Below are positions 10,817 through 30,660 of a DNA stretch of 42,307 nucleotides, piece by piece. Source of the stretch: a virus (Duplodnaviria > Heunggongvirae > Uroviricota > Caudoviricetes); the IMG/VR virus record IMGVR_UViG_2541047692_000013. One strand, written 5' to 3'. The translations under genes and the position numbers were made by a program. Under the pieces are notes generated by a model. That model worked only from the letters and a program-made list of their open reading frames with translations. It ran no database searches and was not told the DNA's origin. The first letter of the stretch is position 1; each line of letters opens with the position of its first letter.

Positions 10817-10830
10817 TGTGACATGTCACA
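10817..10830. repeat. perfect palindrome TGTGACATGTCACA (copy 1 of 3)
   Basis: Core GTGACATGTCAC at 10818-10829; identical 12-mers at 28049-28060 and 30314-30325, each beside an intrinsic terminator. Confidence 0.8.
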
Positions 10831-10836
10831 CTCACG

Positions 10837-10977
10837 TTATGACAAGCCTATGTATCCTGCTACACCAGATAATATCAAAATAACTGCAACAGCAAATTCG
10901 CCATCGTCAATGATACATTTACGGTTCATAACGCCAAGTGCAACAAGCGCAAACACAACAAGAATAAAAGCAATCAT
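10837..10977 (-). CDS. small hydrophobic membrane protein (46 aa), not in the ORF track
   Basis: ATG (complement of 10975-10977) with SD aagga 6 nt upstream, overlapping the stop of the preceding virion gene; translation MIAFILVVFALVALGVMNRKCIIDDGEFAVAVILILSGVAGYIGLS; stop TAA at 10837-10839. Confidence 0.45.
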   Translation of the reverse strand: MIAFILVVFALVALGVMNRKCIIDDGEFAVAVILILSGVAGYIGLS

Positions 10978-10986
10978 TTCTCATCC

Positions 10987-13461
10987 TTATTGCGGAGTGA
11001 CATCCTGTGGTCGCCACCAGTATGTCTGGTTAAACTCTTTCTTCGAACGTTGCTCCATTTTACGCAAATAGCCTGGTGAAAAATACTCCTGCATCTGGTT
11101 AAAGATCATGTGATCGAGAGCCGCCTTCAAGTACCAGAGATTCGCACCTGGCATCAGCCCCTTCCCCAGCTTAACCAGATCACCACCAGTCTGCTCATTC
11201 TTCCCTTCCACAGCATTTAACGGTATGCCCTGAGCAATCTTCACTACGTCATCAACCAGACCAGCTACCGGGCCAAGCATCGACGCCAGCGCGCCGCTTC
11301 CGTACCTAGTGTGATCTGACAATAAAAAGTCACCGTAAAGGCCAAGACCACCACCTTTCAGTAGAGCACCAAGCCAAAATTTAGCAGCATCTTCTCCTGT
11401 CATCTCGCGATGATTACGACCAGACGCAAGGTCGTTAAGTTGCTGAGACAAAGCGCCAAGAATGGTCGTGCTGGCAATAAACGTCGCAATATATGCCGCA
11501 CGCCCACCAGCAGACGGCATACCCATAGCGCGTGACCAGTGACGCATAACCACCGAGATAGGGAACGATTTAAACAGGAAAACACTTCTCGTTAATTCAC
11601 CTTTCCATGTTCCACGCTGAATACCAGAACCGGTTATCAGTTGCTCACGTGCTCCCGGTGTAATAACAGCCATATCAACTTCTTCAGTTACGGCACCGAG
11701 CAGTTTACGCATTGCCTCAAATTTCACGCGTTCAGGCTCACCAAGATGTTTAACTGCTGAATCAGGGATACGCATAATGCTTTCCGGTGTCAGCATCGTA
11801 TTATTACCGTTCCCCCAGTCCTCCTGTTGCGCCAGCTTCCATACGCTCCAGTCTGTGTCAGTAATCCCTTTGCTTTTCAGGATACGAAAATCAGAGTCAT
11901 CGAGGCTACGAAGGTCTGGTGTCCGTGACACTACTTCTCCCAGGCTTCCCATCATGGTTACGCCATAGGCGCGCTTGTGCGCATCTGACCATGCTGTAAG
12001 CCCACTGGCACGCATTACCGCCGTTGCAGCCCAACGAGACACTGACGGCCCCATATTATCCATCGCCCAGCGGTTAACGCTGCCAAGTAGAGATTCCATC
12101 GCCAGACCAGCGCGGCGCGCCCGCGCAAGCTCAGTACGGTTCGTTGGGTCCATAGCTTCAAGCTGGTTGCGGAATAACTGGTTCATTGGAAGGTTGGTCA
12201 CCTTCGCAGACAGATACATGGTTCCAAGATCAGAGAACGATGACAGCAACGCGGATCCGAGTCTGCTGGCAACCAGCCAGTTGCGGATATTGTCAGACCA
12301 TCGCGCGATGTGCGGATTTGCTACAGGCTGTGTCTTTCCGGAAATAAAGTTGTACAGATTCTCTGTGTTGTTCGCCAGCCGCTCGACTTTACCGGTTTTA
12401 CTCGGGTTAGCTGTTGCCGTTTCTGCCTTCACCTGATCAAGAAGAGAGCGGAAAACATGATCGGGGTTTGGGCCATATGTTTCCACCAGTGCAATATCTT
12501 TACTGATACCTTCCAGGTGACCGACCATGATTTCCCATAGAGAGCGATCGCCATAAAGTTGCTGATATTGCAGATAGGAATCTGCATCTTTGAAATGTAT
12601 CTGTCGTGATGCATTACCACGGTTAGCACGTGCGCCGGAAATTCGCATTCCGGTATCAGTAAGCTTATTCAGCCCACCAGTAGCGATCGTGTTATAAGCC
12701 TCTCCAAGAAATGCAGACAACTCGGCATCGTTCATCAGTTGTCCATCGGCTCGGATATAATATTTGCGATCCAGCTTACCTATAACATCGCTAACCCACT
12801 TATCCTTTGATACCGCCCCAACCTTTTCCATAGAATGATGTTGAGGGATCCCCCAGTTTTCGAGATAGCCAATGTCCCCACCAGCATCATTAAACCGGCG
12901 GCGCAGCAGCTCTGTAACTTCTCTCCACGCCTTAGCACCTTTTCTTGCTTTAGCATTGCCAGTATTTTGCCCCCGCATTTCATATACCAGGTCACGTACG
13001 CCCGCTTCATCTTCAAACAGACCAAAAAAGCGAGGATCAACTGCTTCGAATGCCTCCTGCAATTGACTCAATGCATAATCACGGGTGGCTTTTGTTCTGG
13101 ATTCAACAGAGAGGAAATTAGATTTACCGTCTGCATTAAAAGCTATAGTACGGTTAAGAGCGCCAAGTTTCCCATCAGCCCCTTGATAGCTATTGATAAA
13201 TTTATCCAATCTCTGACGTGCAGCTATAGTGAGAGCCACACGACGTTTCTTTAATGCCGCTTCTCGCTGTAATTCTTCAGATGCCAATTGTGCTGCACGA
13301 TACAGCCGCTCTGACTCGGAAAGTTGTCGCCACGACATAGGGTCATCACGAGCAATGGAGCGCATATTGCGATAAATGCGGTCTTCAATGTTCTGTATTT
13401 CTCGCGCCGTTAACGTGCGCTGCGCCGCCTGCTGGACCGCTTGTATACATTCCTGTCTCAT
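10987..13461 (-). CDS. large internal virion / DNA-ejection protein
   Basis: 824 aa; last large gene of the virion operon, the position of podovirus internal core/ejection proteins; called by position and size only. Confidence 0.5.
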   Translation of the reverse strand: MRQECIQAVQQAAQRTLTAREIQNIEDRIYRNMRSIARDDPMSWRQLSESERLYRAAQLASEELQREAALKKRRVALTIAARQRLDKFINSYQGADGKLGALNRTIAFNADGKSNFLSVESRTKATRDYALSQLQEAFEAVDPRFFGLFEDEAGVRDLVYEMRGQNTGNAKARKGAKAWREVTELLRRRFNDAGGDIGYLENWGIPQHHSMEKVGAVSKDKWVSDVIGKLDRKYYIRADGQLMNDAELSAFLGEAYNTIATGGLNKLTDTGMRISGARANRGNASRQIHFKDADSYLQYQQLYGDRSLWEIMVGHLEGISKDIALVETYGPNPDHVFRSLLDQVKAETATANPSKTGKVERLANNTENLYNFISGKTQPVANPHIARWSDNIRNWLVASRLGSALLSSFSDLGTMYLSAKVTNLPMNQLFRNQLEAMDPTNRTELARARRAGLAMESLLGSVNRWAMDNMGPSVSRWAATAVMRASGLTAWSDAHKRAYGVTMMGSLGEVVSRTPDLRSLDDSDFRILKSKGITDTDWSVWKLAQQEDWGNGNNTMLTPESIMRIPDSAVKHLGEPERVKFEAMRKLLGAVTEEVDMAVITPGAREQLITGSGIQRGTWKGELTRSVFLFKSFPISVVMRHWSRAMGMPSAGGRAAYIATFIASTTILGALSQQLNDLASGRNHREMTGEDAAKFWLGALLKGGGLGLYGDFLLSDHTRYGSGALASMLGPVAGLVDDVVKIAQGIPLNAVEGKNEQTGGDLVKLGKGLMPGANLWYLKAALDHMIFNQMQEYFSPGYLRKMEQRSKKEFNQTYWWRPQDVTPQ

Positions 13462-13466
13462 TTAAT

Positions 13467-15269
13467 TTAACCTCTCAAGAAACACGCCACAGCAACATCA
13501 AACAGGCTGGAATCCTGTATTGCCTGCTCACTTTCCCTGTTAGCTTCATCCAGTACTTCACGCGCACTGCGCGATTGTGGATTACCATCATCATCCAGCA
13601 CGGTGATTATCATGTCAGGTGATTCAAGCAGCGAGTCTTCAGCTATACGCAGATCAATATCTCCTGCCGGATCTGCCATCATTTTTTGTTCTGTCTGTTG
13701 CAATATCTTACCGGGCTCAAAAGGAGCTACTTCGTCTGGCGTCCTGACCTCTGCTGTTTTATAGAATGAAACAGCCTGAGCATTAAGTTCACTTTCTGCC
13801 TGCTGTCGCCGTGCCAGTTCTGCTCGAGCTTCAAAAAACTGACCTCCAGGCTCGTGCGGTGCCAACGCGTTACGGGAAAATTCCAGGCGTTCTTGTGCCT
13901 GCCGGATTCGTTGATCAATATCACGAAGTCTGGCCTGTTTATCTGATCGAGCACGAGACAAAGCTTTACCGCTACCGGTTGGCTCTTCTGCAAGAATTTG
14001 TGCACGCTGTTCAGTGAGATTTTCAATAATTCGTTGGCTATTAGCGATTTCAGACTGGTAAACCTGTCTATCTCCACGCGGCAAAAGCTGCGCGGCCTGT
14101 TCTTCAAGCAACCGATTTTCTATAGCGCGCGCCGTTACTCCATCATCTACAGATGACAGAGCCTCATTAACTGCCTGAGACAGCAGACTCTTGCGCCCAG
14201 GAATTTCACTGAAAGATGCAGACTCAACAATGCTGGCAACGTCTACAGGTCTCCCCTGGCTAACATCAGACATAGCTTTTCGCAGAGCCTGAATGTGAGA
14301 ATTGCGCGAAAGCACGTTGATCGGCACGCCGGGCGCAATATCAATTTCAGCATGATGAGCGGCATTCGCCGCCAGTGCAGCATCGATATCAACTGGTGAA
14401 AAATTTGGTGCGTTTGTAGACTCGCCGCGAGAGTTAATAAATCTGCCGACACCACCAAACGCCACCCCAAGAACAGCATCAATAGCAATTGCCTGTCGAT
14501 CCAACACATCATACTGGTTAGCCATTTCGCTATAGCCACCATCACGAAGCGTTTTTGCAGTAAGCCCACGCTGTGCCATACCGAACGCAATATTTGTACC
14601 TGCGGCATAGGCAATATCTGGCGTTGCACGTACTGCTGTTGCTGCGGCGCGTCGTACTGAACTTTCACCCGTCCGCGCGAGCTGAGCCGCCACACCTTCC
14701 GCCAGCGCACCACCAGCACGTAACCCGAGGCTCATAGGGATCAATGTCCCGGCCCCAGCAGTAATGCCCTGCACTAATCCCGCTTCCTGCGCTGTCCTGA
14801 AATCAACACCCTGTGCTGTCAGCCGTTCAAACTCAGAAAAACCCTGTAGCGAAGTTACCGCCGCTGCACCTCCGACAGGACCACCGAGCGTTGTACCGAC
14901 AACAGCCTGCCCGCCCATATCGAACAACCCATAAAGAACCTGCCCGGCGGTTCCGGTTGTCGCGGCATCAGGCGTCAGCCGCTTAACCTGCTGCTCTGCT
15001 AGTTTTCTCTGCTCGGCAATGTATGAAACTGAAGTGTCATTGAGCGAGGTGTTTTCGTTAACAAACTGAGCAATCGGGGATACGATTTTATCCATCCCTG
15101 CCCATAGCAACTGATCTGGCTTTGCCACCAGCCCGGAGTACAAACCAGACAATGCCGCTCCTACAGCATTGTCGAAAAAACCAACATCGCTGTTAAAGCC
15201 AGCTGGATTTGATACTGCTTCGTCAAGCTGCTGATTCTGGTTTACTGGATTAAGGCCAAAGTAACTCAT
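13467..15269 (-). CDS. internal virion protein
   Basis: 600 aa, Ala/Gly-rich with coiled-coil segments; translationally coupled (4-nt overlap) to the upstream gene. Confidence 0.45.
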   Translation of the reverse strand: MSYFGLNPVNQNQQLDEAVSNPAGFNSDVGFFDNAVGAALSGLYSGLVAKPDQLLWAGMDKIVSPIAQFVNENTSLNDTSVSYIAEQRKLAEQQVKRLTPDAATTGTAGQVLYGLFDMGGQAVVGTTLGGPVGGAAAVTSLQGFSEFERLTAQGVDFRTAQEAGLVQGITAGAGTLIPMSLGLRAGGALAEGVAAQLARTGESSVRRAAATAVRATPDIAYAAGTNIAFGMAQRGLTAKTLRDGGYSEMANQYDVLDRQAIAIDAVLGVAFGGVGRFINSRGESTNAPNFSPVDIDAALAANAAHHAEIDIAPGVPINVLSRNSHIQALRKAMSDVSQGRPVDVASIVESASFSEIPGRKSLLSQAVNEALSSVDDGVTARAIENRLLEEQAAQLLPRGDRQVYQSEIANSQRIIENLTEQRAQILAEEPTGSGKALSRARSDKQARLRDIDQRIRQAQERLEFSRNALAPHEPGGQFFEARAELARRQQAESELNAQAVSFYKTAEVRTPDEVAPFEPGKILQQTEQKMMADPAGDIDLRIAEDSLLESPDMIITVLDDDGNPQSRSAREVLDEANRESEQAIQDSSLFDVAVACFLRG

Positions 15270-17779
15270 TGCGGAATATCTCCGGAGAATCTCTGACGCT
15301 TCTGTGTCAGATCAAGAACAACAGGAGAACCATCATCCTTCAGCAGATATCCAGTCCCAAGTTTTACCAGGTACTGACTATCGCCGTAACTTTGCAAACC
15401 ATACTGACCAGGCGGTGTTTTTATCCCTGTGCCGACAACTTGTTCATTCCAAGCCTGATTAACCTGCTTATCGAATTGCTCTGCAGACATTCCCCACGGC
15501 AAAAGGACATTCCCCATTCCGTTATAGTCATGCACGCCACCTGTAGCTACGTTAACAGCCTGTTTCCAGATATCATTGTCAATTTCGCCTGATACCACGC
15601 CTTTTTTCGCCATCACACCAGCGTAATAGTCCTTTGCGATCTCGTATGCCATTGATGCCCCCTGAGCATCACCAGCAAATGCATCCTTCACCATGTCAGA
15701 AAACTCAAGGCGAAGATCAGCATCTTTAGGCATCGGAATACCTTTCGCATCATCAGTACCTTTACGAGCCGCCGCGCCAGCAAGAATTGTCTGCGCAGCG
15801 GTTTCAGGTGACACGGAAACATCCGGATTAAACCAGTTTTTTTCTGCCAAAATACCACCAGGTTTATCCATCAGTATCCCGGCAACGGCAGCAGATGGAG
15901 CGTTGGCACTGATCTGCTGTAGTGCTGACATATACACCTGCCCACCACCAGTGCTTTGCCTGATGGTATCGAGATATGCTGCCTGTTGGGAAACGGGCGC
16001 ATCACGAAAGAAAACACCGATCTGATTGGCCTCGTCTTTGGAAAAGAACGTCAGTGGAGTGCCATATGACTTGGCAAGGTCACTGACCTGAGCGGCACGC
16101 AAGGCAACGCTCTGTCCAAAGTTATCCTTATTGCTCATGTCGATAGGCTTTGCCTGTCCGGCGGCAAGAGAGAACTGCACAGGATCCGACTGCCGCTGCT
16201 TTATCACCTGATTTGCAGCCGAAACAACGTTGTCATAAAGAGCTGCGCGTGCCGCATACCCCTCCCCTGTCTCACCAGTATCCGGGCGTAATTGCTCAAC
16301 ATATGCTGTAATGCTGCTTGTCGGCATGTTGCGGAAAGAGCCTATATACTGTCCGGCGATCTGCGTATTTCTGAACTCGGTATATCGCAGGTTTCCTTCT
16401 CTGACGCCATAAGCTGCAATAAAATCAGCCTCACCAGGTGGATTAGGAAATTCAACGCCACGCATATACGCAGCCGTCGCATCGCGAACCTGGCTGTCAA
16501 TCATCGTTTTATATTCAGCCTGCTGCTGCCGACGCAGTTGATCCGCCTGTCGCATATAACTTGCCTGCGCCTCAGGAGATGCCGCATCGAATGCTGCATT
16601 ACCGGTATAGCGTTTGGTGTTGGTTGGAATTGTTGATAAACCAAGTGCTGCACTGACACCAGCAGTTAACTGCTGATCACTGTATGGCTGGCTACCGTTC
16701 TCATGATGGATAATGGCTGCACAAAGCGCCTTCAGGGTATCAGGATTTGATGCATCGAGAGGCTCATCAGCAGAAACGCCAAGTTGTTCGCACACTGCTT
16801 TGATATACGACATAGTGTCATTTTTATCAGTAGGCGGTGCCCAGCGATTAATTATCTCGCTGACTGTATCAATACCCTGCCGCTGATACGACATCAGGTT
16901 CCGCCCTAATGCACGAATCCCGTGTTCAGGTGTTTCGAATTTAGCAAATCGACCATCATCACCGGTCTGGCCTACCCACGGATTAGTTTTGCTGTATTCG
17001 AGATTTCCTGGGTTATTGTTGCGTATGCCACGGGCACGCTCGGAAGAGTCACTATCTGCTACAGCACGGCGAGCTCCAGCAGCAGTATCACTTAACTCGC
17101 CATTACTTTGGATGAATGCGGTCGCATTGTTTGCCGACCACTGGGACAATGCAGCATCAGCAACCTTCTCTTTAAACTCGATTTTCTTGGCCTGGATTTG
17201 CTCGTCACTCCAGCCATGTGCAATGCCGTAATCCTCAATTTGCTGGAAAGTTTGCTTATTAGCCAATACGTATGCGGCGTTGTCGCCATACAATGCTGCG
17301 GCATTTTTACCATTGTTCAGCAGCGCAGCCTGAAACTGGCCTTCTTCGTAGGCATTTATTTGCCCTATCTCGTGCCGCCCTGCCTGCGTAGTGAACTGAA
17401 TGCGCTGCTGCTGCGCCTGCTGCATGAAAGCATTACGAGCCTGTTCATCCGGCAGCGACATAGCCAGTTGTTCGATCTGAGCATCAAACTGCTGCGTATA
17501 CTCCTGACCTTTTCCAATAGCATTTTTCCATTTCAGGTTAAGCAAACCTGTTTCAGGGTTATTCAGCAGATCGCTGCCTGTCTGACTGAGTTTAAGGGAT
17601 GCCTCCTGAGCCAGAGCGATATTGGCACGCTGTTTTGCCTGACCAAAAACATCAATTGTCTCTGCCCCTGCCCGAACAAAAGCATCACCAATACCTGGCT
17701 GAGAAAACGTCTGCAAGCCTGCTGACTGAACTCCACGGCTCTCAACCTGACGTCCGGATACTGTTGGTACGACTGGCAT
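15266..17779 (-). CDS. internal virion (core) protein
   Basis: Start reassigned to ATG at 17777-17779 (MPVVPT...) with SD ggagg 7 nt upstream and 1-nt overlap with the upstream stop; about 837 aa. Confidence 0.5.
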   Translation of the reverse strand: MPVVPTVSGRQVESRGVQSAGLQTFSQPGIGDAFVRAGAETIDVFGQAKQRANIALAQEASLKLSQTGSDLLNNPETGLLNLKWKNAIGKGQEYTQQFDAQIEQLAMSLPDEQARNAFMQQAQQQRIQFTTQAGRHEIGQINAYEEGQFQAALLNNGKNAAALYGDNAAYVLANKQTFQQIEDYGIAHGWSDEQIQAKKIEFKEKVADAALSQWSANNATAFIQSNGELSDTAAGARRAVADSDSSERARGIRNNNPGNLEYSKTNPWVGQTGDDGRFAKFETPEHGIRALGRNLMSYQRQGIDTVSEIINRWAPPTDKNDTMSYIKAVCEQLGVSADEPLDASNPDTLKALCAAIIHHENGSQPYSDQQLTAGVSAALGLSTIPTNTKRYTGNAAFDAASPEAQASYMRQADQLRRQQQAEYKTMIDSQVRDATAAYMRGVEFPNPPGEADFIAAYGVREGNLRYTEFRNTQIAGQYIGSFRNMPTSSITAYVEQLRPDTGETGEGYAARAALYDNVVSAANQVIKQRQSDPVQFSLAAGQAKPIDMSNKDNFGQSVALRAAQVSDLAKSYGTPLTFFSKDEANQIGVFFRDAPVSQQAAYLDTIRQSTGGGQVYMSALQQISANAPSAAVAGILMDKPGGILAEKNWFNPDVSVSPETAAQTILAGAAARKGTDDAKGIPMPKDADLRLEFSDMVKDAFAGDAQGASMAYEIAKDYYAGVMAKKGVVSGEIDNDIWKQAVNVATGGVHDYNGMGNVLLPWGMSAEQFDKQVNQAWNEQVVGTGIKTPPGQYGLQSYGDSQYLVKLGTGYLLKDDGSPVVLDLTQKRQRFSGDIPQ

Positions 17780-18324: not shown

Positions 18325-18788
18325 TATTTTCTCTCCATGTGAAATCTGTGGAAATTAAGACCAAGAGCACCATAAGGCGCGGCTTCTTCAAGCCTGAATC
18401 CAAGCCAGTGGAGCCATGCTTTGGCAACATGGTTTCGCTCGTCGACGTAGTTTTCCAGGCGCGGATAAACTGCCAGCATCTGCCGCAATACAGGGTGGCA
18501 GTGGCGAAGAAATGTCTTCTGATATTTTTCAATACGGCTGGTCCCGACCAGCCAGGGCGTACCATTGCCACCGATCATTGACGCCGGAGATACACCAAAC
18601 ATGGTTACCAGTTCTCCGTTCGCGAACCCTGACCAGGCCATAGTCGCAGTGCGCAGACCAACACGCAGCGCATCTTCGGTAGTCATCAGCGATACCGCAT
18701 ACAGTTCGTCAATATCAGCCTGACGAACATCCGGCAAAATCATCTGAAGATGCTCTTCGGTTGCGGGAATAATTTGAACACCAATCAT
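18324..18788 (-). CDS. virion-associated hypothetical protein (T7 gp13-like by position)
   Basis: 154 aa, directly downstream of the tail tubular B-like gene with overlapping stop/start. Confidence 0.4.
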   Translation of the reverse strand: MIGVQIIPATEEHLQMILPDVRQADIDELYAVSLMTTEDALRVGLRTATMAWSGFANGELVTMFGVSPASMIGGNGTPWLVGTSRIEKYQKTFLRHCHPVLRQMLAVYPRLENYVDERNHVAKAWLHWLGFRLEEAAPYGALGLNFHRFHMERK

Positions 18789-21259
18789 CAGAATCCCCCA
18801 ACAGTAAGGCGAGGAATAACGGCAAGAACAGACAGCGGCAACGGATCAAGCTGACGGATTTTTACACGTCCGTTTTTGCCCCAGTTACTGTCCAGTTTCA
18901 CTTCTACTTTTCCGGTAGCATCATCAACAGGATCATCGTAGAACTCGAATTCACGCTGTGGATATTCGTACCATTTACCGCCGGGCGTAGTCGCCCAGAT
19001 GCCGCGGCTGGCATTCACAACCAGAGTAACGGATGGGATCACCTGTTTTTTGTCCAGCAGCGTTTCCTGTCCGTTAATGTTGATATCCAGTGTTTCGAAT
19101 TCAGCAGTTATTGGCAGGCCGATGTGCACTACAGCCCCCGGAGATTCCAGCGTGACGGCACCTCCGGAAACCACTTTCTGTGGTTCCACGTTCGCATCAG
19201 AGAGAATGTTTACGGTCTGGCCTTCAAGATGAGACAGGCCTCCAAATGTCCGGCGCGCCATCTGCCAGTTCGTGGTGGCCACATTCCTGAGGGATGGCGG
19301 GACGTTCCTGTTAGCACGAACCACTACAGCGGTATTGCTGGTTACAGAAATAATGTCGCAACGTAATTCTTTTGACACTTCATCGCCAGTATCAGGATCA
19401 GTTCCGGTATAAGGGAATTGTAGTTGCGCACCGACATCACTACTGGTGAAGTACGCACCACCAGAAATACTGATTGTATATTCCACGCGGTAATCCCATT
19501 CACCAGAACCACCAGTGATGGTCATCGTTCTGTCAGACGTATTTCTTCCATCATAGCTAAGGCCAGAATCAACAAAGAAAGCATCTTCATCGCTGGTAAA
19601 TAAACGGCTGGACAGCCGCTCGATGTATCTCACTGTTTGCCCGTTAACGGTTCGGTTAACGACGAAATACACCGCATCTTCATTTCCTTCGCTGATACTG
19701 CATGTGCTTTCATATTTTCCGGTACTGGACTGTGGTGCCCATGCAAAAACCTGTTGATCACGCAAATAGGTCATCACCAGTAATTTACCGTCATCACGAA
19801 TGCAGAAGGCGCTGGAGTAAGGGACAATAGAGAAGCACCAGTCAACAATGCTGTGCTTCTGAAAAAGATGATTGGCAAGGATGGTCAGGTCGTTCCCCTG
19901 ATAGCCGTCAACATCGAATGAGTAGGCCAGATCACGGACAACACTGCCTTTCTCCTGGACGAACAGAGCAATATTCGCCACGGCAATTGGTGGGACATTG
20001 CTCGAGCCATTTGATCCCTGAGAGCTGAATGCAAATGATGATGGGGTTAACACTTTGTTCTGGTCGCCGGTGATGACGTACTCACCTCCGGAAGTCAGCG
20101 CCACCAGCGAACCAACATCAATCAGGTGACGGATCTCATTAACCTGACGCCCGGCATAGGTGTAGATAATTCTGTCGTCATCCTGCGTAGGATTGCTTTT
20201 GCCAAAATCCTTATAATCCCCAGTACGGCTGGCCCAGATAGTCTGAGGGAACGCAGTCGATGCGGCGAAGTAAAGACGTTGTTGATAATAAACAACAGTG
20301 CCAGGATAACCATTAACACTGTTCCAGGCATATTTAGCCCATTTATAGCTGGCATTATCCTCGCCAACTACCTGCGAAGGGATATAGGAAATCACCTCGG
20401 CAGTTGCAGTAGTTCCATTTGCAGCAGTGATACGGGCAATGCCAAAACCACTGTGCAGATACTCCCACTCAATGCCAGTATCATCATCACCGGAGCCGCC
20501 CCAGCCATCCCATGATGTGCCTTCTGTATGCGAAGGGCGCAAAGTGCCTGTTTTGCCTGCTGTAACGGCGCGATAGTAGTTACTGTCTGCACGGCGAATA
20601 TCGCTAATCGACGTACTCTTACTGGTTTCCCATACCGGCACTGAATCCACTGCAGGCTGTTCCAGATAGAACAATTTGCCTACCTGCTCCGCGCCAAAAA
20701 TAGAGGCGCTTGCCGTTAACGTAATTGTCCCAGTGCTGGCGCTGGCATAAACCGTCACTGACTCGTCGATATTGATATCTTCAAATGGTCCGTTCTTCGT
20801 TACCACATCAACCAGTTGCCAGTTGTCATGCGCATAGCGACGCAACTCTTTCGGCGGGTATGCCGGATGAACAAGCGTAAGCACGTCGGCGCTTTGCGTG
20901 AATTTAATTCGGAACAGATCGGCTTCAGTATATGGCGTGGCAATTTCATAAATAACATTGCTGCTGTTCAGCACCAACGCACCATCTTTGATAACGCGCA
21001 TGTACTGGTGTCCGAACTCCAGAGCGTAGGTCTGAACCGTCGAGAACTGGAACGGGATCAGGCGGCATTTCCGATTTGGGTATTTGGCGGCACCGACAAA
21101 ACGCGTACCAGGTCGATTCTCAACGCCGCCATACTGCCGCACGATAAAGTTATCGCACTTGCGCAATGCCACCTGGTACTTCGCCATGTCGATACGACCG
21201 TACAACGACGGTCCAATCTCACCACCGGCAAAGCTGGGCTGGATCCAACTGATAGCCAT
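18788..21259 (-). CDS. tail tubular protein B-like (T7 gp12-like nozzle protein)
   Basis: 823 aa; N-terminus MAISWIQPSFAGGEIGPSLYGR resembles the conserved podovirus gp12 start; position after adaptor-like gene. Confidence 0.55.
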   Translation of the reverse strand: MAISWIQPSFAGGEIGPSLYGRIDMAKYQVALRKCDNFIVRQYGGVENRPGTRFVGAAKYPNRKCRLIPFQFSTVQTYALEFGHQYMRVIKDGALVLNSSNVIYEIATPYTEADLFRIKFTQSADVLTLVHPAYPPKELRRYAHDNWQLVDVVTKNGPFEDINIDESVTVYASASTGTITLTASASIFGAEQVGKLFYLEQPAVDSVPVWETSKSTSISDIRRADSNYYRAVTAGKTGTLRPSHTEGTSWDGWGGSGDDDTGIEWEYLHSGFGIARITAANGTTATAEVISYIPSQVVGEDNASYKWAKYAWNSVNGYPGTVVYYQQRLYFAASTAFPQTIWASRTGDYKDFGKSNPTQDDDRIIYTYAGRQVNEIRHLIDVGSLVALTSGGEYVITGDQNKVLTPSSFAFSSQGSNGSSNVPPIAVANIALFVQEKGSVVRDLAYSFDVDGYQGNDLTILANHLFQKHSIVDWCFSIVPYSSAFCIRDDGKLLVMTYLRDQQVFAWAPQSSTGKYESTCSISEGNEDAVYFVVNRTVNGQTVRYIERLSSRLFTSDEDAFFVDSGLSYDGRNTSDRTMTITGGSGEWDYRVEYTISISGGAYFTSSDVGAQLQFPYTGTDPDTGDEVSKELRCDIISVTSNTAVVVRANRNVPPSLRNVATTNWQMARRTFGGLSHLEGQTVNILSDANVEPQKVVSGGAVTLESPGAVVHIGLPITAEFETLDININGQETLLDKKQVIPSVTLVVNASRGIWATTPGGKWYEYPQREFEFYDDPVDDATGKVEVKLDSNWGKNGRVKIRQLDPLPLSVLAVIPRLTVGGF

Positions 21260-23021: not shown

Positions 23022-23036
23022 CTTCTTTCTCCATTA

Positions 23037-23056: not shown

Positions 23057-23072
23057 AGGTTAATAACAGGCG

Positions 23073-24065: not shown

Positions 24066-24073
24066 TTCCTCTC

Positions 24074-24775: not shown

Positions 24776-25068
24776 TCCTGTTCACTGGCCTCTTTGGCCA
24801 TCTTCAAATACTGTTCAGGGCAATGCGCCATAACGCGCTGAAACAGTTCCAGCGCCAGATTGCGTTGCCCCTCATTAAATGCCATTGCCATAGCATCCAT
24901 CGGAGAGATAGCGGAAAACACCCGGCCTTTCTCCAGCACAGACCAGACAACGCGACGCCCCTGTTCACTGCTCATGACAAAGCGAATGTCATCAATTTCA
25001 CGTTGTGCCATGTCACGTTGCTTACGGGCGTTTTCTTCTTTCAGTTGATCGTCTTCGTAATCTGTCAT
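24772..25068 (-). CDS. hypothetical small protein between portal and scaffold genes
   Basis: 98 aa; 4-nt overlaps on both sides indicate translational coupling. Confidence 0.45.
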   Translation of the reverse strand: MTDYEDDQLKEENARKQRDMAQREIDDIRFVMSSEQGRRVVWSVLEKGRVFSAISPMDAMAMAFNEGQRNLALELFQRVMAHCPEQYLKMAKEASEQE

Positions 25069-26744
25069 TGTGATTGCCCACCCTGACCACTAACTGCATT
25101 CGCCATAGCTGACAAAACACTCGGATCCGAAGTTTTAGCTTCGCTTAGCGTCTTGGCACCCTGTGCCGCCGCCATCCCCATCTCCATCATTTGTTGCTGC
25201 TGTTGTTGCTGTGCCCGTTGCTGGCGAGCCTGCTCAACCTGTTCCTGCGGAACAATGACGGTTGGAGACACTCCGGACATATCAGCGAATGCATCGATTG
25301 CCTGATCAACGTTGAGTTTGTCGAGAGCTTCTGGTTTCGCTTGCGCAAGTTGACCAATGAAGTTGACCGTAGACGCCAGACTGGACAGGCCGATAGACTT
25401 CTGCGCCTGAGCCATGACGGAAATGTATTCGACCTTCAGGGGCATACCTTCCATCGCGTCAGGCGGGGGCGGCAGCATGTTTTTACGCACCATCATCGAG
25501 AAAGCGCGGTCAATGAGAGGATTAAGACATTCGTCGTTCAGACGCTCCAGAACCGGCCCCAACATCAGAAGTTTTTCTTCTTTCATTTCGATCACCGCTT
25601 CAACAGGCATCGAACGGGTATTGATGTTCTGCAACATCATGAACAGATCGACAAAGTAGGCACTGTTAATGATTTGACGAGTGTCCTGAATGTCTGCCAC
25701 CAGATCTGCTGTACTGGGGTTAACCAGATAAGCAGGCCTGAAACCATCCTGACCAGTAATCTGATCGATATACGTGATGTCGCCAGGAAGAAGGGAGGCG
25801 CGCTGATTCTTGAGGGAAGTCGGAGCAATCATCGGCGGATTGGTGGCTTTATCAATCAACTGCGACTTGCGCTTCTGGAGAAGCTGCAATGCCTTAACAG
25901 GTCCAAGCGCCAGCATACCCGGGCATGATGATCCATAAACATCTTCGCCGTTAACTTCCCAGCGCGGAGCCATAATTGGAAACTCATCGAATCCTGACTC
26001 ACGCAACAACTTGTCGTTATCACCGCCAACCTCGTAATAAACCGATTTGAATGGCTTGTTCTTGCTATCCAGCTTCGATGTATCGCGGTCAATGTTCGGG
26101 TAAACCGAATGCATCACTTCAATCCACTTCTCGTAGGTGCCGCTTTCCCACATGCTTTTTACGGATTCGCTGACGTTATTTAGCCCGAACTCCTGAACAA
26201 GCTGACGAACAGTCATAGAGAACTTGCGAAAACAGGTGTCCACACTGCCACGAGGTGAGTTAGCCAGGTAGTAACTGCCTATCGGGAATGGCATTGTGCG
26301 AATGATGTCATCGTCATCCTCCAGTACCGCCATTGCACCAGTGCTGTATGTGCCGAGGCTTCCGTATAACTGCGGCAGCGACTGATAGAGATTCGACTTA
26401 TTGAACATATCGTTCATGCGGTTCTGCACCGCCTCAAGCCACAACTTAACAGGGCCATAATCCATCATTTCAGGATCTGGCGTAGCCAGGCGAAACCACG
26501 GACGCGCGGGGCTTGTGATGCCTGACATCATGCCGCTGGCGAGAGTGCGCGCCGCCATAGTCCCGGTCGAATCAATAATGCGTGTATTGCGTCGATCGTT
26601 ACGGTTGACCTCAGAAGTCAGAAAGCGGGAACCACGCGGGTTGATGTAATCACTCAACTCGCGCCAGTGCGGCTCGAACGACTGACGCTCGCTTTCAAGT
26701 TGTGCGAACTGTTTGTTCAATCGCTCTTTAGTTGTTTCCGCCAT
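25065..26744 (-). CDS. portal (head-to-tail connector) protein, T7-type
   Basis: 559 aa; C-terminal Gln-rich tail (QQRAQQQQQQQMMEMGMAAAQGA...) resembles the T7 gp8 C-terminus. Confidence 0.75.
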   Translation of the reverse strand: MAETTKERLNKQFAQLESERQSFEPHWRELSDYINPRGSRFLTSEVNRNDRRNTRIIDSTGTMAARTLASGMMSGITSPARPWFRLATPDPEMMDYGPVKLWLEAVQNRMNDMFNKSNLYQSLPQLYGSLGTYSTGAMAVLEDDDDIIRTMPFPIGSYYLANSPRGSVDTCFRKFSMTVRQLVQEFGLNNVSESVKSMWESGTYEKWIEVMHSVYPNIDRDTSKLDSKNKPFKSVYYEVGGDNDKLLRESGFDEFPIMAPRWEVNGEDVYGSSCPGMLALGPVKALQLLQKRKSQLIDKATNPPMIAPTSLKNQRASLLPGDITYIDQITGQDGFRPAYLVNPSTADLVADIQDTRQIINSAYFVDLFMMLQNINTRSMPVEAVIEMKEEKLLMLGPVLERLNDECLNPLIDRAFSMMVRKNMLPPPPDAMEGMPLKVEYISVMAQAQKSIGLSSLASTVNFIGQLAQAKPEALDKLNVDQAIDAFADMSGVSPTVIVPQEQVEQARQQRAQQQQQQQMMEMGMAAAQGAKTLSEAKTSDPSVLSAMANAVSGQGGQSQ

Positions 26745-26758
26745 TTCAATGACTCCGG

Positions 26759-26965
26759 TTACTGACCAAGCAGCGTTTTACCGCTGGTATTAGCGGTTGA
26801 TGTGTCACCCTGAGAACCGGTAAGCAGCGTAGAACTACGACCAGCAGCAGCGCGACGGCGACGTGTTTCTTCGTCGCGGGCATCAACAACGGCGGCATCC
26901 TGCTCCTGTGGTGCTGCCTGAACTTCTGGTGTTGCAGGCACTGATGGTGAGCTACCCATGCACAT
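26759..26965 (-). CDS. small hypothetical protein upstream of portal
   Basis: 68 aa low-complexity ORF; ATG at 26963-26965 with SD ggag 8 nt upstream; existence uncertain. Confidence 0.35.
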   Translation of the reverse strand: MCMGSSPSVPATPEVQAAPQEQDAAVVDARDEETRRRRAAAGRSSTLLTGSQGDTSTANTSGKTLLGQ

Positions 26966-27033
26966 ATCAATGACTCCGTACGCAATTAAATTATTACCAA
27001 TTTAACCACATATGATTTATTTATCGTAGACAG

Positions 27034-27071
27034 TTGACATTTAACGCACGAATTATTACCTTTCAGGTAAG
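27034..27071 (+). promoter_or_regulatory. promoter-like element (TTGACA at 27034-27039) with perfect operator TTACCtttcaGGTAA (27056-27070), in divergent region between virion operon and tRNA module
   Basis: Consensus -35 hexamer; operator where a -10 would lie; region is ORF-free on both strands. Confidence 0.45.
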
Positions 27072-27392
27072 CAGAGAGTGCATTCCTGTTATTAACCTGA
27101 CTGGCTTGTCGTTAAATTGAACAGGTGGAGTGAGATTTTATTTTGAGCAGTACGGCGTATGGCACATGCGCCGATAGCGGTCTGGATACGTTTAATGGGC
27201 ACCCTCCCTTGCTCGGGCAAACGAACCAGGTAGCCGGAATGTGCAAGTCGAGCGGTTTTATTCCGCGCACGGGGATTCACCATCCCGGCGATTCGGTGTG
27301 ACGCCTCGGAAGAGACGAGGGTGCAACGATGAGAGCATTTATGGAGCCGCGACAAAGTGTGGCGCCTTAACAGGCTAAGTGCTCTCAGCGTT

Positions 27393-27469
27393 GTGGCATT
27401 AGCTCAGTTGGACAGAGCAACCGCCTTCTAAGCGGTCGGTCGCAGGTTCGAATCCTGCATGCCACGCCA
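27393..27469 (+). tRNA. tRNA-Arg (anticodon UCU)
   Basis: 77-nt cloverleaf by hand: acceptor GTGGCAT/ATGCCAC, D-arm GCTC/GAGC, anticodon stem ACCGC/GCGGT with loop CTTCTAA, T-arm GCAGG-TTCGAAT-CCTGC, discriminator G, encoded CCA. Confidence 0.85.
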
Positions 27470-27512
27470 GAATCACGCCTAAGGACCGTGATGCCAGAAG
27501 TTCCAGGGGCTT

Positions 27513-27555
27513 GGCGGTGATGGTTTCCCTTGAAGGACTATCACCGCCCTTTTTA
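27513..27555 (+). terminator. intrinsic terminator after the tRNA
   Basis: 8-bp stem ggcggtga/tcaccgcc enclosing a 20-nt loop, followed by CTTTTTA. Confidence 0.5.
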
Positions 27556-27632
27556 CAGCAGGACGCCATTGCGATGGCTTCATGCTGTAAACCAGTACAG
27601 CCACGGAAGGCATAACTCATTGCTTCCAGTTC

Positions 27633-27656
27633 GCCCGGTTCGCCGGGCATTTTTTT
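27633..27656 (+). terminator. second intrinsic terminator, directly upstream of the next gene's RBS
   Basis: Stem gcccgg/ccgggc with loop ttcg followed by ATTTTTTT; SD aaggtgag starts right after. Confidence 0.55.
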
Positions 27657-27672
27657 AAGGTGAGATTAGACT

Positions 27673-28044
27673 ATGAGTGACAAAGACATTGAATCTGAAA
27701 TTCAGGCTAAAGGTTTAGCCGCGCCGCGCGTTACGCCAGACCATATCGAGAGTATTATTGCTCAGGAGGCATATTTCACAGCAGAAGATGGTGTCTTTGG
27801 CGTAGCCATAAAAGCGAAACATACTGGCGGAGAGGTAAACTACCAGCCGCACGAATCACTTTCTCTGCTGACGTTCTGCGTTCTGGTGCTGCGCAATGGC
27901 TTCACCGTCACCGGAGAGAGCGCCTGTGCAAGCCCGGAAAACTTTGATGCGGAAATTGGTCGGAAGATTGCCCGGCAGAATGCTGTAAACAAAATCTGGA
28001 TGCTTGAAGGTTACTTGCTGAAGCAGAAGTTAAGCGAGCAATAA
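27673..28044 (+). CDS. conserved phage hypothetical protein (possibly N4 Gp49 / Sf6 gene 66 family)
   Basis: ATG 27673 with SD aaggtgag; 123 aa; family assignment from memory only. Confidence 0.5.
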   Translation: MSDKDIESEIQAKGLAAPRVTPDHIESIIAQEAYFTAEDGVFGVAIKAKHTGGEVNYQPHESLSLLTFCVLVLRNGFTVTGESACASPENFDAEIGRKIARQNAVNKIWMLEGYLLKQKLSEQ

Positions 28045-28048
28045 CACC

Positions 28049-28060
28049 GTGACATGTCAC
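28049..28060. repeat. perfect palindrome GTGACATGTCAC (copy 2 of 3)
   Basis: 4 nt after the stop of 27673..28044 and directly before the terminator hairpin. Confidence 0.8.
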
Positions 28061-28064
28061 AAAC

Positions 28065-28091
28065 AGCCAGCCGATGAGCTGGCTTTGTTTT
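28065..28091. terminator. terminator between convergent gp49-like and terminase genes
   Basis: Stem agccagc/gctggct with loop cgatga; TTGTTTT follows on the plus strand; weaker T-run on the minus side. Confidence 0.55.
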
Positions 28092-28134
28092 ATCCTCACC
28101 AGAGGATATCTCCGTCATTATCCCCGCTAACGGA

Positions 28135-29610
28135 TTAAGCATAGGGATCGTAATCTGTAATGGCCTTGCCTTGCTGGTTCTGCTGCCCGGGAATTCGCAG
28201 ACGCTTAGACACAGGGAACGCAAACGTCAGCAGTAGCGCATCGCCTTTACCCGGCGAACGCCCAAGCCGCTCCTTGATATCTTCCTTCGGTTCGATAACG
28301 ATTTTACCGTCCACTCGAACTTTGTACTCTGCCGCCGACAGGTCGTCCGCTGTTTCCTGGTCATCCAGCATGCCGCCCAGCCTCAGCCATGTCTTGCATG
28401 AGTTGAACATCTCCCCACGCTTGTTGAGCATCTGCGGGTCAGTAGACGCGCCACCGAACGGAACAAGTTGCCATGTGCGCCCCCAACCGTCACCGATTGA
28501 CTTCAGCCCGGTACCGTAACCGAAGTCGATGAACACCGCGTCAGCCTGATACTGGTCTTCAAAGTCAGCGATACGCTTCGCCATAATCAGATCGTCAGTG
28601 GTCTTGTTGCCGGTCCACAGCACCTTACTATGCAGCCCCTGCCGCAGGTATATCACAGCGTCATCAACGCCGGAGTATGCCGGGTCAACGCCGATTATCA
28701 CCGGAGCATGTGCAACCTGCGCAGCGGTTACCACCCGTTTCATTGCCTCGTCAGTAAGTCCGGTAGGGATAAACTGCAATTCAGATGCATCCGGGAATAT
28801 GCCGCGCACACGGATTTTAACGAAGTCGCTGTCTTCCCCGTAGTCATCAACCCATTTCTGCAACTGCTGTTTGTTAGTGCCTTCCACCGTCCGGCTGTCA
28901 ATCTGCGCAGTTTTCCAGCGGTGTTTATATTTGCGGAAACATTCGCGGAAACGCCCGGTGTTACGTGTAGGGTTTCCGAACGCCACCCAGATAATCTCAG
29001 TGTCTTCGTCCGTAAGCGCACCCTCAGCAACTTCCCACACCAGATCCGCAATGTTCGACGCTTCATCAAATACCACGATGATGCGTTTACGCTCGTTGTG
29101 TAGTCCGGCGAATGCCTCAGTGTTGTGCTCAGACCAAGGGATTGCGTCAGCTCGCCACCGCTTGTCGTGCCCAGGATCATTGCTGTACATCGCGGTAGCG
29201 GTACAGGTAAACCAGTCTTTCGTGATAGCAAGGTTCGACCACTTGATAATTTCCGGCCAGGTCTTCGTTCGTAGCTGGTTGTCGGTGTTGGCGGTCACCA
29301 CAACCTTACAATCCTCGCAAGTGGACATGCCCCAGTTGATCAGCATTGAGATGAATGCGGATTTACCAATACCGTGACCAGAAGCACGTGCCAGCATAAG
29401 CGGCTGATATCGCGTCTCTGGATTCTGCAGGTGATCACGTATCTCTCGGAACGCATCAGCCTGCCATTGACGTGGGCCGGTAGCATGTGCCAGTTCAGTC
29501 CCCTCTTCCCCCCACGGGAACGCATAGAGGGCATAACCAAGCGGATCGTGAGTAAACCCTGCAATATCCTCGATCAACTGCTCTTCAGGAGATAACACTG
29601 TATCTGTCAC
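28135..29610 (-). CDS. terminase large subunit
   Basis: 491 aa; N-terminal ATPase-like region and C-terminal nuclease-like region (GVDPAYSG); GTG start overlapping the small-subunit stop. Confidence 0.75.
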   Translation of the reverse strand: MTDTVLSPEEQLIEDIAGFTHDPLGYALYAFPWGEEGTELAHATGPRQWQADAFREIRDHLQNPETRYQPLMLARASGHGIGKSAFISMLINWGMSTCEDCKVVVTANTDNQLRTKTWPEIIKWSNLAITKDWFTCTATAMYSNDPGHDKRWRADAIPWSEHNTEAFAGLHNERKRIIVVFDEASNIADLVWEVAEGALTDEDTEIIWVAFGNPTRNTGRFRECFRKYKHRWKTAQIDSRTVEGTNKQQLQKWVDDYGEDSDFVKIRVRGIFPDASELQFIPTGLTDEAMKRVVTAAQVAHAPVIIGVDPAYSGVDDAVIYLRQGLHSKVLWTGNKTTDDLIMAKRIADFEDQYQADAVFIDFGYGTGLKSIGDGWGRTWQLVPFGGASTDPQMLNKRGEMFNSCKTWLRLGGMLDDQETADDLSAAEYKVRVDGKIVIEPKEDIKERLGRSPGKGDALLLTFAFPVSKRLRIPGQQNQQGKAITDYDPYA

Positions 29611-30200
29611 TGATTACCATCCTGACGTTCTTTGAGTCGCTTCCTGGCTGCTGCTATGCGATCAGCAATTGTCACATTCACATTAACATCCAGGCGTTCT
29701 TTGAATGCGTTGACGTCGACGTGCTTACCAATCAGTTCGAGGTTCTTCACCTTGTCAGGCCATTTAATTTTTTTGAGGATTGTCTCTATCGAATCCTCGT
29801 TCATGTTCATGATGGTCGATGACAGATCAAAGCCGCTAAGCGTAGTGCGCCAGATTTTCGGCCACTCGCGGATTGGCTTAAGGCTCCCATCGTCGTTGAG
29901 GATGTCGATCACGTCCATCTGGTCGATCTCCACCAGGCGCATGAGAACGTAATCAGCACTGACGCGCATTCGTTTGTTGCGCTCCTCCATCAACTCGGCA
30001 ATCCGTTTTTGAATGCGTTCATCGCGCATCATGACACTGGCTTTAACTGCCGCTGTATTTGGGGAGAATCCTGCATTAATCGCTGCCTGAGTCTGGTTTT
30101 CAGGCGTTTTGATGTATGACTGGCAATAAGCCTCCTGCATTGCTGTTAGTGGCTTAAATTGCGTTGATTTGCGTTTATAGGTTTTAGGTTCAGCAGGCAT
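29607..30200 (-). CDS. terminase small subunit
   Basis: Start taken as the second ATG (30198-30200; 30201-30203 also possible); the ORF-track N-terminal extension runs through the operator and is discounted; Terminase_2-like region (AINAGFSPNTAAVKASVMMRDERIQKRI). Confidence 0.65.
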   Translation of the reverse strand: MPAEPKTYKRKSTQFKPLTAMQEAYCQSYIKTPENQTQAAINAGFSPNTAAVKASVMMRDERIQKRIAELMEERNKRMRVSADYVLMRLVEIDQMDVIDILNDDGSLKPIREWPKIWRTTLSGFDLSSTIMNMNEDSIETILKKIKWPDKVKNLELIGKHVDVNAFKERLDVNVNVTIADRIAAARKRLKERQDGNQ

Positions 30201-30201
30201 C

Positions 30202-30236
30202 ATAACCACCGTGGTAATAGTTACCGTTGTGGTAAT
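30202..30236. promoter_or_regulatory. tandem operator sites at the terminase start: aTAACCaccgtGGTAAt (one mismatch) and gTTACCgttgtGGTAAt (perfect)
   Basis: Centres 18 bp apart; the first overlaps the TerS start codon and SD. Confidence 0.5.
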
Positions 30237-30243
30237 AGTACCA

Positions 30244-30272
30244 TGCAAAATAAAGCCGCCATAGTTGGCGGC
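30244..30272 (-). terminator. intrinsic terminator between the early operon and the late (terminase) operon
   Basis: Stem gccgcca/tggcggc with loop tagt, followed on the minus strand by TTTATTTT; about 45 nt upstream of the TerS start. Confidence 0.6.
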
Positions 30273-30313
30273 AGTATTCAAAACCCATCAAATTCATCAT
30301 GCATAATCTACTC

Positions 30314-30325
30314 GTGACATGTCAC
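30314..30325. repeat. perfect palindrome GTGACATGTCAC (copy 3 of 3)
   Basis: Overlaps the stop codon of 30322..30660; about 40 nt upstream (minus sense) of the terminator before TerS. Confidence 0.8.
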
Positions 30326-30660
30326 ACTATTAATTTAGTTTCATGCCAGCCTTTAGTCACCCAGCATTGCGAGTCACCATTACACGGGCATGAATTAACG
30401 GGAACTTTCTCGCCGCACTTACCGCAACGTTTTCTGCTAATCGATTTTATACGCCCGCGCACGCGTGCATCATCCTGGCGGATCAGTAACGCTATATACT
30501 CCCCAAATTCGTAAGGCGCACGCCCGGGGCGACGCGTGGCACAGTTACGCTCCAGCATTTCAATTTCCTGAGCATCAAGCACAATCTCCAGCTTACGCAC
30601 ACCAGATGCAGCTTGTCTGGCTCTCTGAGCGGCTTTGCGCTCTGCTGCTGATTTAGCCAT
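30322..30660 (-). CDS. small basic protein with C-terminal Cys-rich zinc-ribbon-like motif; candidate late-gene regulator (speculative)
   Basis: 112 aa; Arg/Lys/Ala-rich N-terminus, C-terminal CGKCGEKVPVNSCPCNGDSQC; last gene of the early operon directly before the terminator and late operon. Confidence 0.45.
   Translation of the reverse strand: MAKSAAERKAAQRARQAASGVRKLEIVLDAQEIEMLERNCATRRPGRAPYEFGEYIALLIRQDDARVRGRIKSISRKRCGKCGEKVPVNSCPCNGDSQCWVTKGWHETKLIV

Follow-up and report, generated by a model that had tools for sequence, protein, structure and literature searches.

A conserved 12-bp palindrome at unit boundaries of epsilon15/phiV10-like prophages and its candidate binding protein, a widespread 112-residue phage product

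The stretch of DNA analysed here, IMG/VR record IMGVR_UViG_2541047692_000013 (42,307 bp, hereafter the window), is a phiV10/epsilon15-like (Uetakevirus) prophage whose late genes lie on the minus strand, and it raises the question of what a perfect 12-bp palindrome, GTGACATGTCAC, is doing at three of its module junctions. Our analysis shows that the palindrome is a genuine cis-element, strongly conserved and apparently not described before, for which one specific protein is the candidate ligand. Judged from sequence, GTGACATGTCAC is on balance probably the operator of the phage's own 112-aa protein, a predicted ribbon-helix-helix (RHH)/zinc-knuckle product, and would act on transcription at unit boundaries. 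The repeat, its conservation, its linkage to the gene, an RHH-like structural model and the mosaic junctions are documented below, whereas we infer both the binding step and the transcriptional effect, the former with the better support.

The initial annotation of the window had listed three identical copies of the palindrome, each near a stop codon and a terminator hairpin. Exact matches indeed occupied the three listed positions (Table 1) and no others, and none of 100 dinucleotide-preserving shuffles of the window contained any copy. When up to two mismatches were allowed, 4 matches were counted versus 1.94 expected. A one-mismatch copy, GTGCCATGTCAC at 25005-25016, lies within a small open reading frame (ORF) of the structural region, is also kept in phiV10 (5306-5317), and is probably coding sequence rather than a functional site. 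The proposed extension of two copies to the 14-bp palindrome TGTGACATGTCACA had to be corrected, as it applies to copy 1 alone, copies 2 and 3 both reading cGTGACATGTCACa. Stop codons are indeed close by: a TGA lies inside copy 3, copy 2 begins 4 nt past a stop, and copy 1 is 7 nt from the stop (10837) of a minus-strand gene for a 46-aa membrane protein and 24 nt from the stop (10793) of a plus-strand gene for a 53-aa product. The hairpins likewise stand where they had been described, at distances of 0, 4 and 41 nt from copies 1, 2 and 3, respectively, and their equivalents are annotated in relatives, namely as terminators at 19505-19522 (hairpin next to copy 1) and 2238-2257 (hairpin at 28065-28084) in phiV10 and as a stem-loop at 39646-39672 (hairpin at 30255-30272) in epsilon15. 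Read in the direction of the terminase large-subunit gene (terL), the hairpin at 28065-28084 is followed by GTTTGTG and then by the palindrome.

The 12-mer is present at the same junctions in the related phages phiV10, epsilon15, Tyrion and SPN1S, and no copy was found in ~112 kb of sampled E. coli chromosome, which speaks against a motif common in the host. In epsilon15, a Salmonella phage with ~80% nucleotide identity, each of the three corresponding junctions carries a perfect copy, at 2142, at 19517, where the site overlaps the gp18 stop, and at 39612, where it overlaps the gp49 stop. Three copies at equivalent junctions were also found in Tyrion of Enterobacter (including 2702 and 20377) and in SPN1S of Salmonella (including 2174 and 19662). 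phiV10 carries the 12-mer at 2262 and 19493, the equivalents of copies 2 and 1, and its third copy, which has one mismatch, runs across the junction of the record ends (GTGA followed by CATGTTAC). In the Klebsiella phage Kp4865-1, the two copies flanking the terminase genes are kept (the equivalent of copy 2 at 15252), while the third is located elsewhere because the virion module has been replaced. The DNA flanking the palindrome is only ~80% identical among these relatives. A degenerate fourth copy, GTGACATGGCAT, at the Rz stop of epsilon15 was considered as a further shared feature and dismissed, since the window does not have it. The GenBank annotations of phiV10 and epsilon15 leave the palindrome unmarked but do mark terminators and repressor, IHF and RNase III sites. 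We found no mention in the literature of the 12-mer or its N15 and Vibrio variants in a phage context, in a search that did not extend to the epsilon15 (Kropinski) and phiV10 (Perry) papers, and publications on regulation in epsilon15 and phiV10 and on N15 antC/gp46 yielded nothing on the 112-aa protein.

Beyond this group of phages, the site takes the general form of inverted pentamers, GTGAC and GTCAC, with a 2-bp spacer (GTGAC-NN-GTCAC), for which ~0.04 occurrences per genome are expected by chance. The Pectobacterium myovirus ZF40 contains three copies of GTGACATGTCAC, one of them 2 nt past the stop codon of its homologue of the 112-aa gene. N15, a siphovirus maintained as a linear plasmid, contains GTGAC(TG/CA)GTCAC three times, with one occurrence overlapping the stop of gp46, and in phiKO2 the site GTGACTGGTCAC overlaps the stop of gp45. 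Vibrio phage K303 carries GTGACACGTCAC twice, GTGACGCGTCAC once and the 13-bp variant GTGACACCGTCAC once, and the P2-like Yersinia phage 42.18 has one exact GTGACATGTCAC. Sf6 has neither a GTGAC-NN-GTCAC site nor a homologue of the 112-aa protein, and no site was found in the 6-kb neighbourhood around the Aeromonas homologue.

What the site-bearing phages share is the 112-aa gene. Searches with tblastn identified homologues of its product in ZF40 (67% identity), P2-like Yersinia phages (~40%), N15/phiKO2 (~35-37%; 34-39% in other comparisons), K303-type Vibrio phages (31%) and Aeromonas phages (~30%). Among the window's ORFs of at least 45 aa, it was the only one to match two or more of ZF40, N15, K303 and Yersinia 42.18 in tblastn, and it matched all four. 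A scan of IMG/VR for TGTGACATGTCACG returned at least 120 loci; among the matches listed, ~45 had a homologue of the 112-aa protein (46-99% identity) ending 0-10 nt from the motif, and these included contigs otherwise unrelated to epsilon15, with at least 8 different downstream sequences. The overlap of the site with TGA is kept in phiKO2 and N15 despite a protein identity of ~35-37% over the tblastn segments.

To avoid ascertainment by the motif, loci were also chosen by the protein alone and the site was sought afterwards. In this gene-first set, 76 of 80 close relatives and 50 of 50 N15-type relatives had a site beginning 1 nt ahead of the stop codon, and a site lay within 45 nt of the stop in 127 of the 154 loci fetched with four further representatives. 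Altogether, 253 of 284 loci (89%) had the site no more than 45 nt from the stop codon of the 112-aa family gene, usually overlapping it, and several of the apparent negatives are loci that end before the site region. The density of sites around the gene was ~1 per 10 kb versus 0.0095 expected. The central dinucleotide was AT in 130 of 131 epsilon15-type sites and TG/CA in 103 of 107 N15-type sites. Of the functions first offered for the palindrome, a site for a dimeric regulator is thus the best supported. The candidate is the 112-aa zinc-ribbon protein already named in the initial annotation, the sole protein common to all five of the otherwise unrelated site-bearing phage types.

The 112-aa protein has no Pfam or NCBIfam family and no significant sequence match in the PDB; its PHROG 536 label reads "transcriptional regulator". 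A library-wide profile search yielded 242 cluster representatives at 50% identity, nearly all of them stand-alone proteins of ~110 aa, and the family is distributed over podoviruses, myoviruses, siphoviruses and phage-plasmids of Escherichia, Salmonella, Klebsiella, Enterobacter, Pectobacterium, Yersinia and Vibrio. An alignment of 33 sequences revealed a basic N-terminal helix (AERK..QR.R, in which R8 and R13 are invariant), a strand-helix-helix core (..L.L...E..ML...C..RRPGR.PY...EYIALLIR) and a conserved C-terminal Cys-rich knuckle. The predicted order of elements is basic N-terminal helix, RHH, Cys-rich knuckle and C-terminal helix, and structural modelling predicts a beta-alpha-alpha core whose best structural neighbours are RHH proteins. 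PADLOC, as a test for defence or anti-defence functions, returned no match for the protein or its neighbours.

Our working model is that the protein would bind the palindrome as a dimer, placing its RHH beta-ribbon in the central major groove. Because the strand is variable and the basic helix invariant, the ribbon would read the variable centre of the site, while the conserved N-terminal helix would read the invariant outer GTGAC. The protein's own gene retains a site at its 3' end, so that newly made protein could find its target in cis, as lambda Q does with qut. The bound protein would most likely modulate RNA polymerase at the three unit boundaries, 0-41 nt from the intrinsic terminators, and could do so in either of two directions, by helping polymerase to read through into the next late unit or by insulating convergent units as a symmetric roadblock. 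Early-right, terS-terL (terS being the terminase small-subunit gene) and virion are consecutive co-directional units, each with a palindrome at its 3' end, and the layout, with the gene in the Q position and a site plus terminator before terS, suggests cis-loaded read-through control. Three features argue against read-through: terS has its own repressor-controlled promoter; copies 1 and 2 lie at convergent junctions, so that a roadblock or insulator is equally plausible; and N15 and ZF40 possess separate Q-like genes and have some of their sites within ORFs. The earlier idea of a termination or antitermination element stands as plausible for the epsilon15-like lineage, in which hairpins lie 0-41 nt away, and fails as a general description, since the sites of N15, ZF40 and K303 often have no adjacent terminator.

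Other observations weigh against an operator of the 112-aa protein as a whole. Its assignment to the site is drawn from co-occurrence, and placement at 3' ends is atypical for RHH repressors, which usually sit on promoters. Adjacency to terminators is not general: the N15 site at 33237 lies inside repA, and the ZF40 sites at 5125 and 7622 lie inside ORFs. N15 and ZF40 also carry separate Q-like antiterminators, and the 112-aa family can therefore not simply be a late regulator. The centre of the site is mixed in the P0160 clade (AT, CT, GT, GG and others) and in K303; these two rule out a strict covariation of centre and clade, which holds for the epsilon15-type and N15-type sites, so that the covariation gives partial support, from counts that close relatives inflate. 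As all hosts are gamma-proteobacteria, a shared host factor is possible. Finally, in unrelated bacteria such as Sorangium cellulosum So ce56 and Candidatus Jettenia, 3-5 copies of GTGACATGTCAC are arrayed in tandem in intergenic DNA, spaced 18-22 bp apart. The 8-kb pieces around these arrays yielded no homologue of the 112-aa protein, and an unrelated regulator appears to use the same palindrome there.

Set against known systems, the candidate protein resembles RHH regulators (Arc, Mnt, CopG, MetJ, ParG, omega and RHH antitoxins) in its small size and predicted beta-alpha-alpha core, and the palindrome resembles their operators in being a 12-bp dyad sized for one RHH dimer and present in several copies per replicon. 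Unlike these regulators, the protein adds a conserved basic N-terminal helix and a C-terminal Cys-rich knuckle and belongs by sequence to no Pfam RHH family, and the phage sites differ from RHH operators in lying at gene 3' ends beside terminators, one of them overlapping the stop of the regulator's own gene. The arrangement also recalls lambda Q and qut. The 112-aa gene is the last of the early-right operon, after a NinX homologue, which is where lambdoid phages keep Q; it encodes a small protein with a Cys cluster, and a DNA site follows immediately downstream, then an intrinsic terminator and then the first late genes. However, the promoter at copy 3 is weak or uncertain (9/12), the two further sites have no promoters, terS has its own repressor-controlled promoter, and N15 and ZF40 hold the 112-aa family beside a separate Q. 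Membership of the protein in the lambda Q family was rejected, as searches of Pfam, NCBIfam and PDB sequences gave no match to any Q family. Dispersed palindrome copies bound by a phage protein, here a candidate only, are also found in the SopB centromere-like sites of the temperate phages N15 and phiKO2, and the phiKO2 annotation lists "putative plasmid partitioning sites". These sites differ in sequence, in N15 the partition sites and the GTGACTGGTCAC sites are distinct, and epsilon15-like phages integrate and have no ParA/ParB.

An operator of this kind would link an uncharacterised, widespread family of small phage proteins to a precise candidate DNA target. RHH regulators do not usually act at terminators or at the ends of operons; if this protein does so, it could explain how epsilon15-like phages coordinate separately repressed late units without a Q-type protein.

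The separate units are outlined by the prophage repressor motif TTACC-N5-GGTAA, of which the window contains 16 copies (2949-37282) where 0.67 would be expected. The motif precedes terS, the portal operon, the tailspike gene and accessory genes and is also present in the immunity region, and its copies agree with the "repressor" annotations of epsilon15 (protein_bind feature 12-27). Because the motif precedes several units, the genome reads as a string of separately repressed units, and the late genes appear to be under direct repressor control in several of them. With this motif as the repressor operator, annotated as such in epsilon15 and present in 16 copies elsewhere in the window, the palindrome itself was ruled out as a prophage-repressor operator. 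The two operators upstream of terS would mark a separate repressor-controlled promoter for terS-terL. The distance of copy 3 from terS, originally put at about 110 bp, is right (111 nt) if the gene starts at the ATG at 30203 and wrong if it starts at 30281, as in the phiV10 annotation and the longest ORF. With the latter start, both the terminator (30272-30255) and the repressor operators would fall within the gene, and when aligned with epsilon15 the true start seems to be the ATG at 30203 or 30200. The left end of the prophage joins the host at yfgH-yfgI, downstream of ppk-ppx-pdeF (neighbourhood ppk-ppx-yfgF-yfgG-yfgH-yfgI).

Table 1. Palindrome copies, candidate gene and neighbouring features of the window.
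Feature	Position	Strand	Description
Palindrome copy 1	10818..10829		Convergent junction of the virion operon end (-) and Bro-N/accessory genes (+)
Virion-operon intrinsic terminator	10790..10817	-	Hairpin AGGCCGCTTTCGCGGCCT (10800-10817), then T-run TGTTTTTT; abuts copy 1
Palindrome copy 2	28049..28060		Convergence of terL (-) and the gp49/66-like gene (+); starts 4 nt past the stop of the latter
Phage_gp49_66 family accessory gene	27673..28044	+ (reverse-oriented)	PF13876, E 2.4e-35; stop adjoins copy 2
Terminator of the gp49/66-like gene	28065..28094	+	Hairpin AGCCAGCCGATGAGCTGGCT (28065-28084), then T-run TTGTTTTATC; 4 nt from copy 2
Palindrome copy 3	30314..30325		Contains the TGA (30324-30322, -) of the 112-aa gene
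Candidate binding-protein gene	30322..30660	-	112 aa; phiV10 gp55, epsilon15 gp49, N15 gp46; PHROG 536
Terminator between the 112-aa gene and terS	30246..30272	-	Hairpin GCCGCCAACTATGGCGGC (30255-30272), then T-run TTTATTTT; 41 nt downstream of copy 3
Two repressor operators	30203..30235		Directly upstream of the probable terS start
Repressor operators, examples	30203-30217, 30221-30235; 27056-27070; 7549-7563; 36445-36507, 37205-37282		In order: terS; portal operon; tailspike; further copies

Among the alternatives, the one that survives best is that MatP, the most obvious host candidate, or another host dimer occupies the sites, for DNA organisation or as a roadblock, with the 112-aa protein as a cofactor, a competitor or a merely linked gene. 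We consider this unlikely. The half-sites are identical to those of the 13-bp matS consensus, GTGAC-RNY-GTCAC, which has one central base more (PMC3603311), and the same regular expression recovered the true matS site GTGACAGTGTCAC from K-12. However, the three window copies and essentially all other phage copies have a 2-bp rather than a 3-bp spacer and do not fit the consensus; the K303 site at 19491, the 13-bp copy GTGACACCGTCAC, alone does. With a spacer of 2 instead of 3 bp, the half-sites are shifted and rotated relative to each other. matS has moreover been reported to be absent from 500 prophages, for which counter-selection was argued (PMC3603311). In K-12, the Ter-proximal 100 kb at 1.30-1.40 Mb hold one 13-bp matS and no 12-bp form.

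All site-bearing phages presumably infect orders that have MatP, a point in favour of a host factor. Against it, the yfgI neighbourhood, in which this prophage and its copies reside, lies outside the Ter macrodomain on the K-12 map. The sites of SlmA (GTGAGTACTCAC) and LacI (GTGAGCGCTCAC) likewise begin with GTGA and end with TCAC, and the resemblance to matS should therefore not be over-read. When we compared the palindrome with CRP, LexA, SlmA and LacI sites, spacing or central bases did not fit. The phage protein also differs from MatP in having neither its four-helix bundle nor its coiled coil, and a PDB-wide comparison of the family profile with solved chains, MatP included, gave no significant similarity; an hhalign run against a MatP sequence gave no match either and is not a valid negative. 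Above all, a host factor leaves unexplained why, in 89% of loci, the site is tightly linked to where a single phage gene stops and why that gene is the sole one common to the site-bearing phages, and it is this tight linkage that makes a host factor less likely.

As a separate observation, the 13-bp K303 copy (19491-19503) that fits the matS consensus overlaps a stop codon and is followed by a hairpin, which is noteworthy in a group of elements reported to be free of matS.

A more speculative variant, which we also regard as unlikely, keeps the phage protein and makes the PHROG 536 family MatP-like organisers: an RHH dimer would bind half-sites of the matS type set 2 bp apart, a spacing left unused by host MatP, and the zinc knuckle and helix would bridge dispersed sites or engage RNA polymerase at terminators. 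If this were true, temperate phages of Enterobacterales and Vibrionales would own a private boundary-element system for transcriptional and recombinational modules, and cross-talk with host matS/MatP would be possible during infection. The identity of the half-sites in any case raises the question of whether phages avoid, mimic or compete with the Ter-organising system of the host.

In a further alternative, which we hold to be distinctly improbable, the palindrome would mainly be a recombination boundary or linker, used in short-homology or palindrome-stimulated exchange of modules between phages and lacking a dedicated binding protein. As a description, the recombination or module junction that had been suggested for the palindrome is borne out. 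We clustered the outward-reading flanks of 279 palindrome occurrences and found a conserved short sequence with differing flanking modules: 9 different arms face the 3' arm of the 112-aa gene across the palindrome, 10 face the terL-hairpin arm and 7 a terminator arm, the flanks diverging exactly at the palindrome. In the window, the terminase module (2.25 kb) and the virion module are each enclosed by sites, the latter being the module replaced in Kp4865-1. At copy 2, the slot of the gp49/66-like gene holds different genes in relatives, all of them reverse-oriented and ending ~4 nt from the palindrome. Short conserved sequences exactly where neighbouring modules swap are known from the lambdoid boundary sequences, annotated as bsq features at mosaic joints in Sf6. 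Unlike these, the present palindrome is perfect, occurs three times per genome, is identical across genera and is tied to one protein family. A passive linker is unlikely to keep 12 of 12 bases in three copies per genome across phages of E. coli, Salmonella, Enterobacter, Klebsiella and Pectobacterium while its flanks drift (~80% identity) or change, nor would it be expected to keep the GTGAC/GTCAC half-sites while the centre varies in the N15 and Vibrio lineages. Mosaic joints would in any case accumulate at a conserved functional site, since recombinants that lose it do not survive. An operator of the 112-aa protein would then illustrate concretely how a functional element can serve at the same time as a module boundary.

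Slightly less probable again is an element that acts in cis with no dedicated protein, be it as a bidirectional -35-like hexamer (GTGACA), as part of a terminator, as a pause element or by providing a weak stop context, UGA-C. The nearness of terminators (0-41 nt) and the TGA on both strands of the palindrome would fit such a role, and GTGACA matches 5 of 6 bases of the -35 consensus. At copy 3, and there alone, this hexamer gives a promoter-like context that starts in the palindrome (GTGACA-18-CATGAT, 9 of 12 matches), the equivalent site in epsilon15 and Tyrion reading GTGACA-17-TAAATT; no -10-like hexamer was found at copies 1 and 2 when their flanks were read by eye. A general promoter element was ruled out on these grounds, the weak context at copy 3 being the only one. 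The palindrome is not itself a terminator hairpin either: it lies outside all neighbouring hairpins, which are terminator-like, and as RNA would form a stem of only 4-5 bp, so that a part in a hairpin or another RNA structure was ruled out as well. In many relatives, the ribosome-binding site of the next gene follows directly after the site, with no terminator or promoter in between. Nor would an element of this kind explain the link to the 112-aa gene.

Very improbable, finally, is the packaging-related role that had been among the first suggestions, in which the palindromes would be pac sites recognised by a P1 PacB-like terminase: copy 3 lies ~110 bp upstream of terS and a K303 site 30 nt upstream of its terS, but whereas a pac site is one locus within or beside terS, the palindrome is dispersed over each genome in three copies, of which two are far from terS. 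The sites of ZF40 and the Yersinia phage are likewise far from the terminase genes, and N15 has three sites, all distant from its terminase genes, although it is a cos phage whose 12-nt cohesive ends are annotated.

Some further occurrences of the palindrome and its variants were noted. In N15, the copy GTGACCAGTCAC (28550-28561) is flanked on one side by gene 33 and on the other by the terminator ahead of the antirepressor (immA) operon. It falls within the spacer of what may be a promoter, TGTGCA-17-TAAAAT, and may bear on the control of anti-immunity in this phage. In Kp4865-1 (12709-12780) and further relatives, a strong promoter (TTGACT...) follows within ~6 nt of the site at the end of the 112-aa gene and overlaps the LexA box TACTGTTTAAATATACAGTA. 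The gene that it drives starts with MGFPSPAKDY and has a UmuD-like look, and an SOS-controlled moron thus appears to have been inserted exactly at the palindrome.

At copy 1 of the window, two mechanically called ORFs, 10531-10824 on the minus strand and 10823-11071 on the plus strand, begin at an ATG in the centre of the palindrome. The former crosses the terminator and is antisense to real genes, yet it gives a full-length match to PHROG 36105 (E 4.6e-69), and for this reason PHROG 36105 may have been built on miscalled ORFs. In prophages of Morganellaceae (Proteus and Morganella), the central ATG of the palindrome appears to be the start of a conserved ORF (MSRYKVLKKSF...) right past the preceding stop.

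In a scan of bacterial genomes for the 14-mer, the matches listed were mostly scattered chance occurrences, with a rough sign of enrichment in Enterobacterales. Providencia burhodogranariea has three exact copies of TGTGACATGTCACG on three scaffolds, in AT-rich intergenic DNA, versus ~0.03 expected, and these may represent a host regulon or unrecognised prophages.

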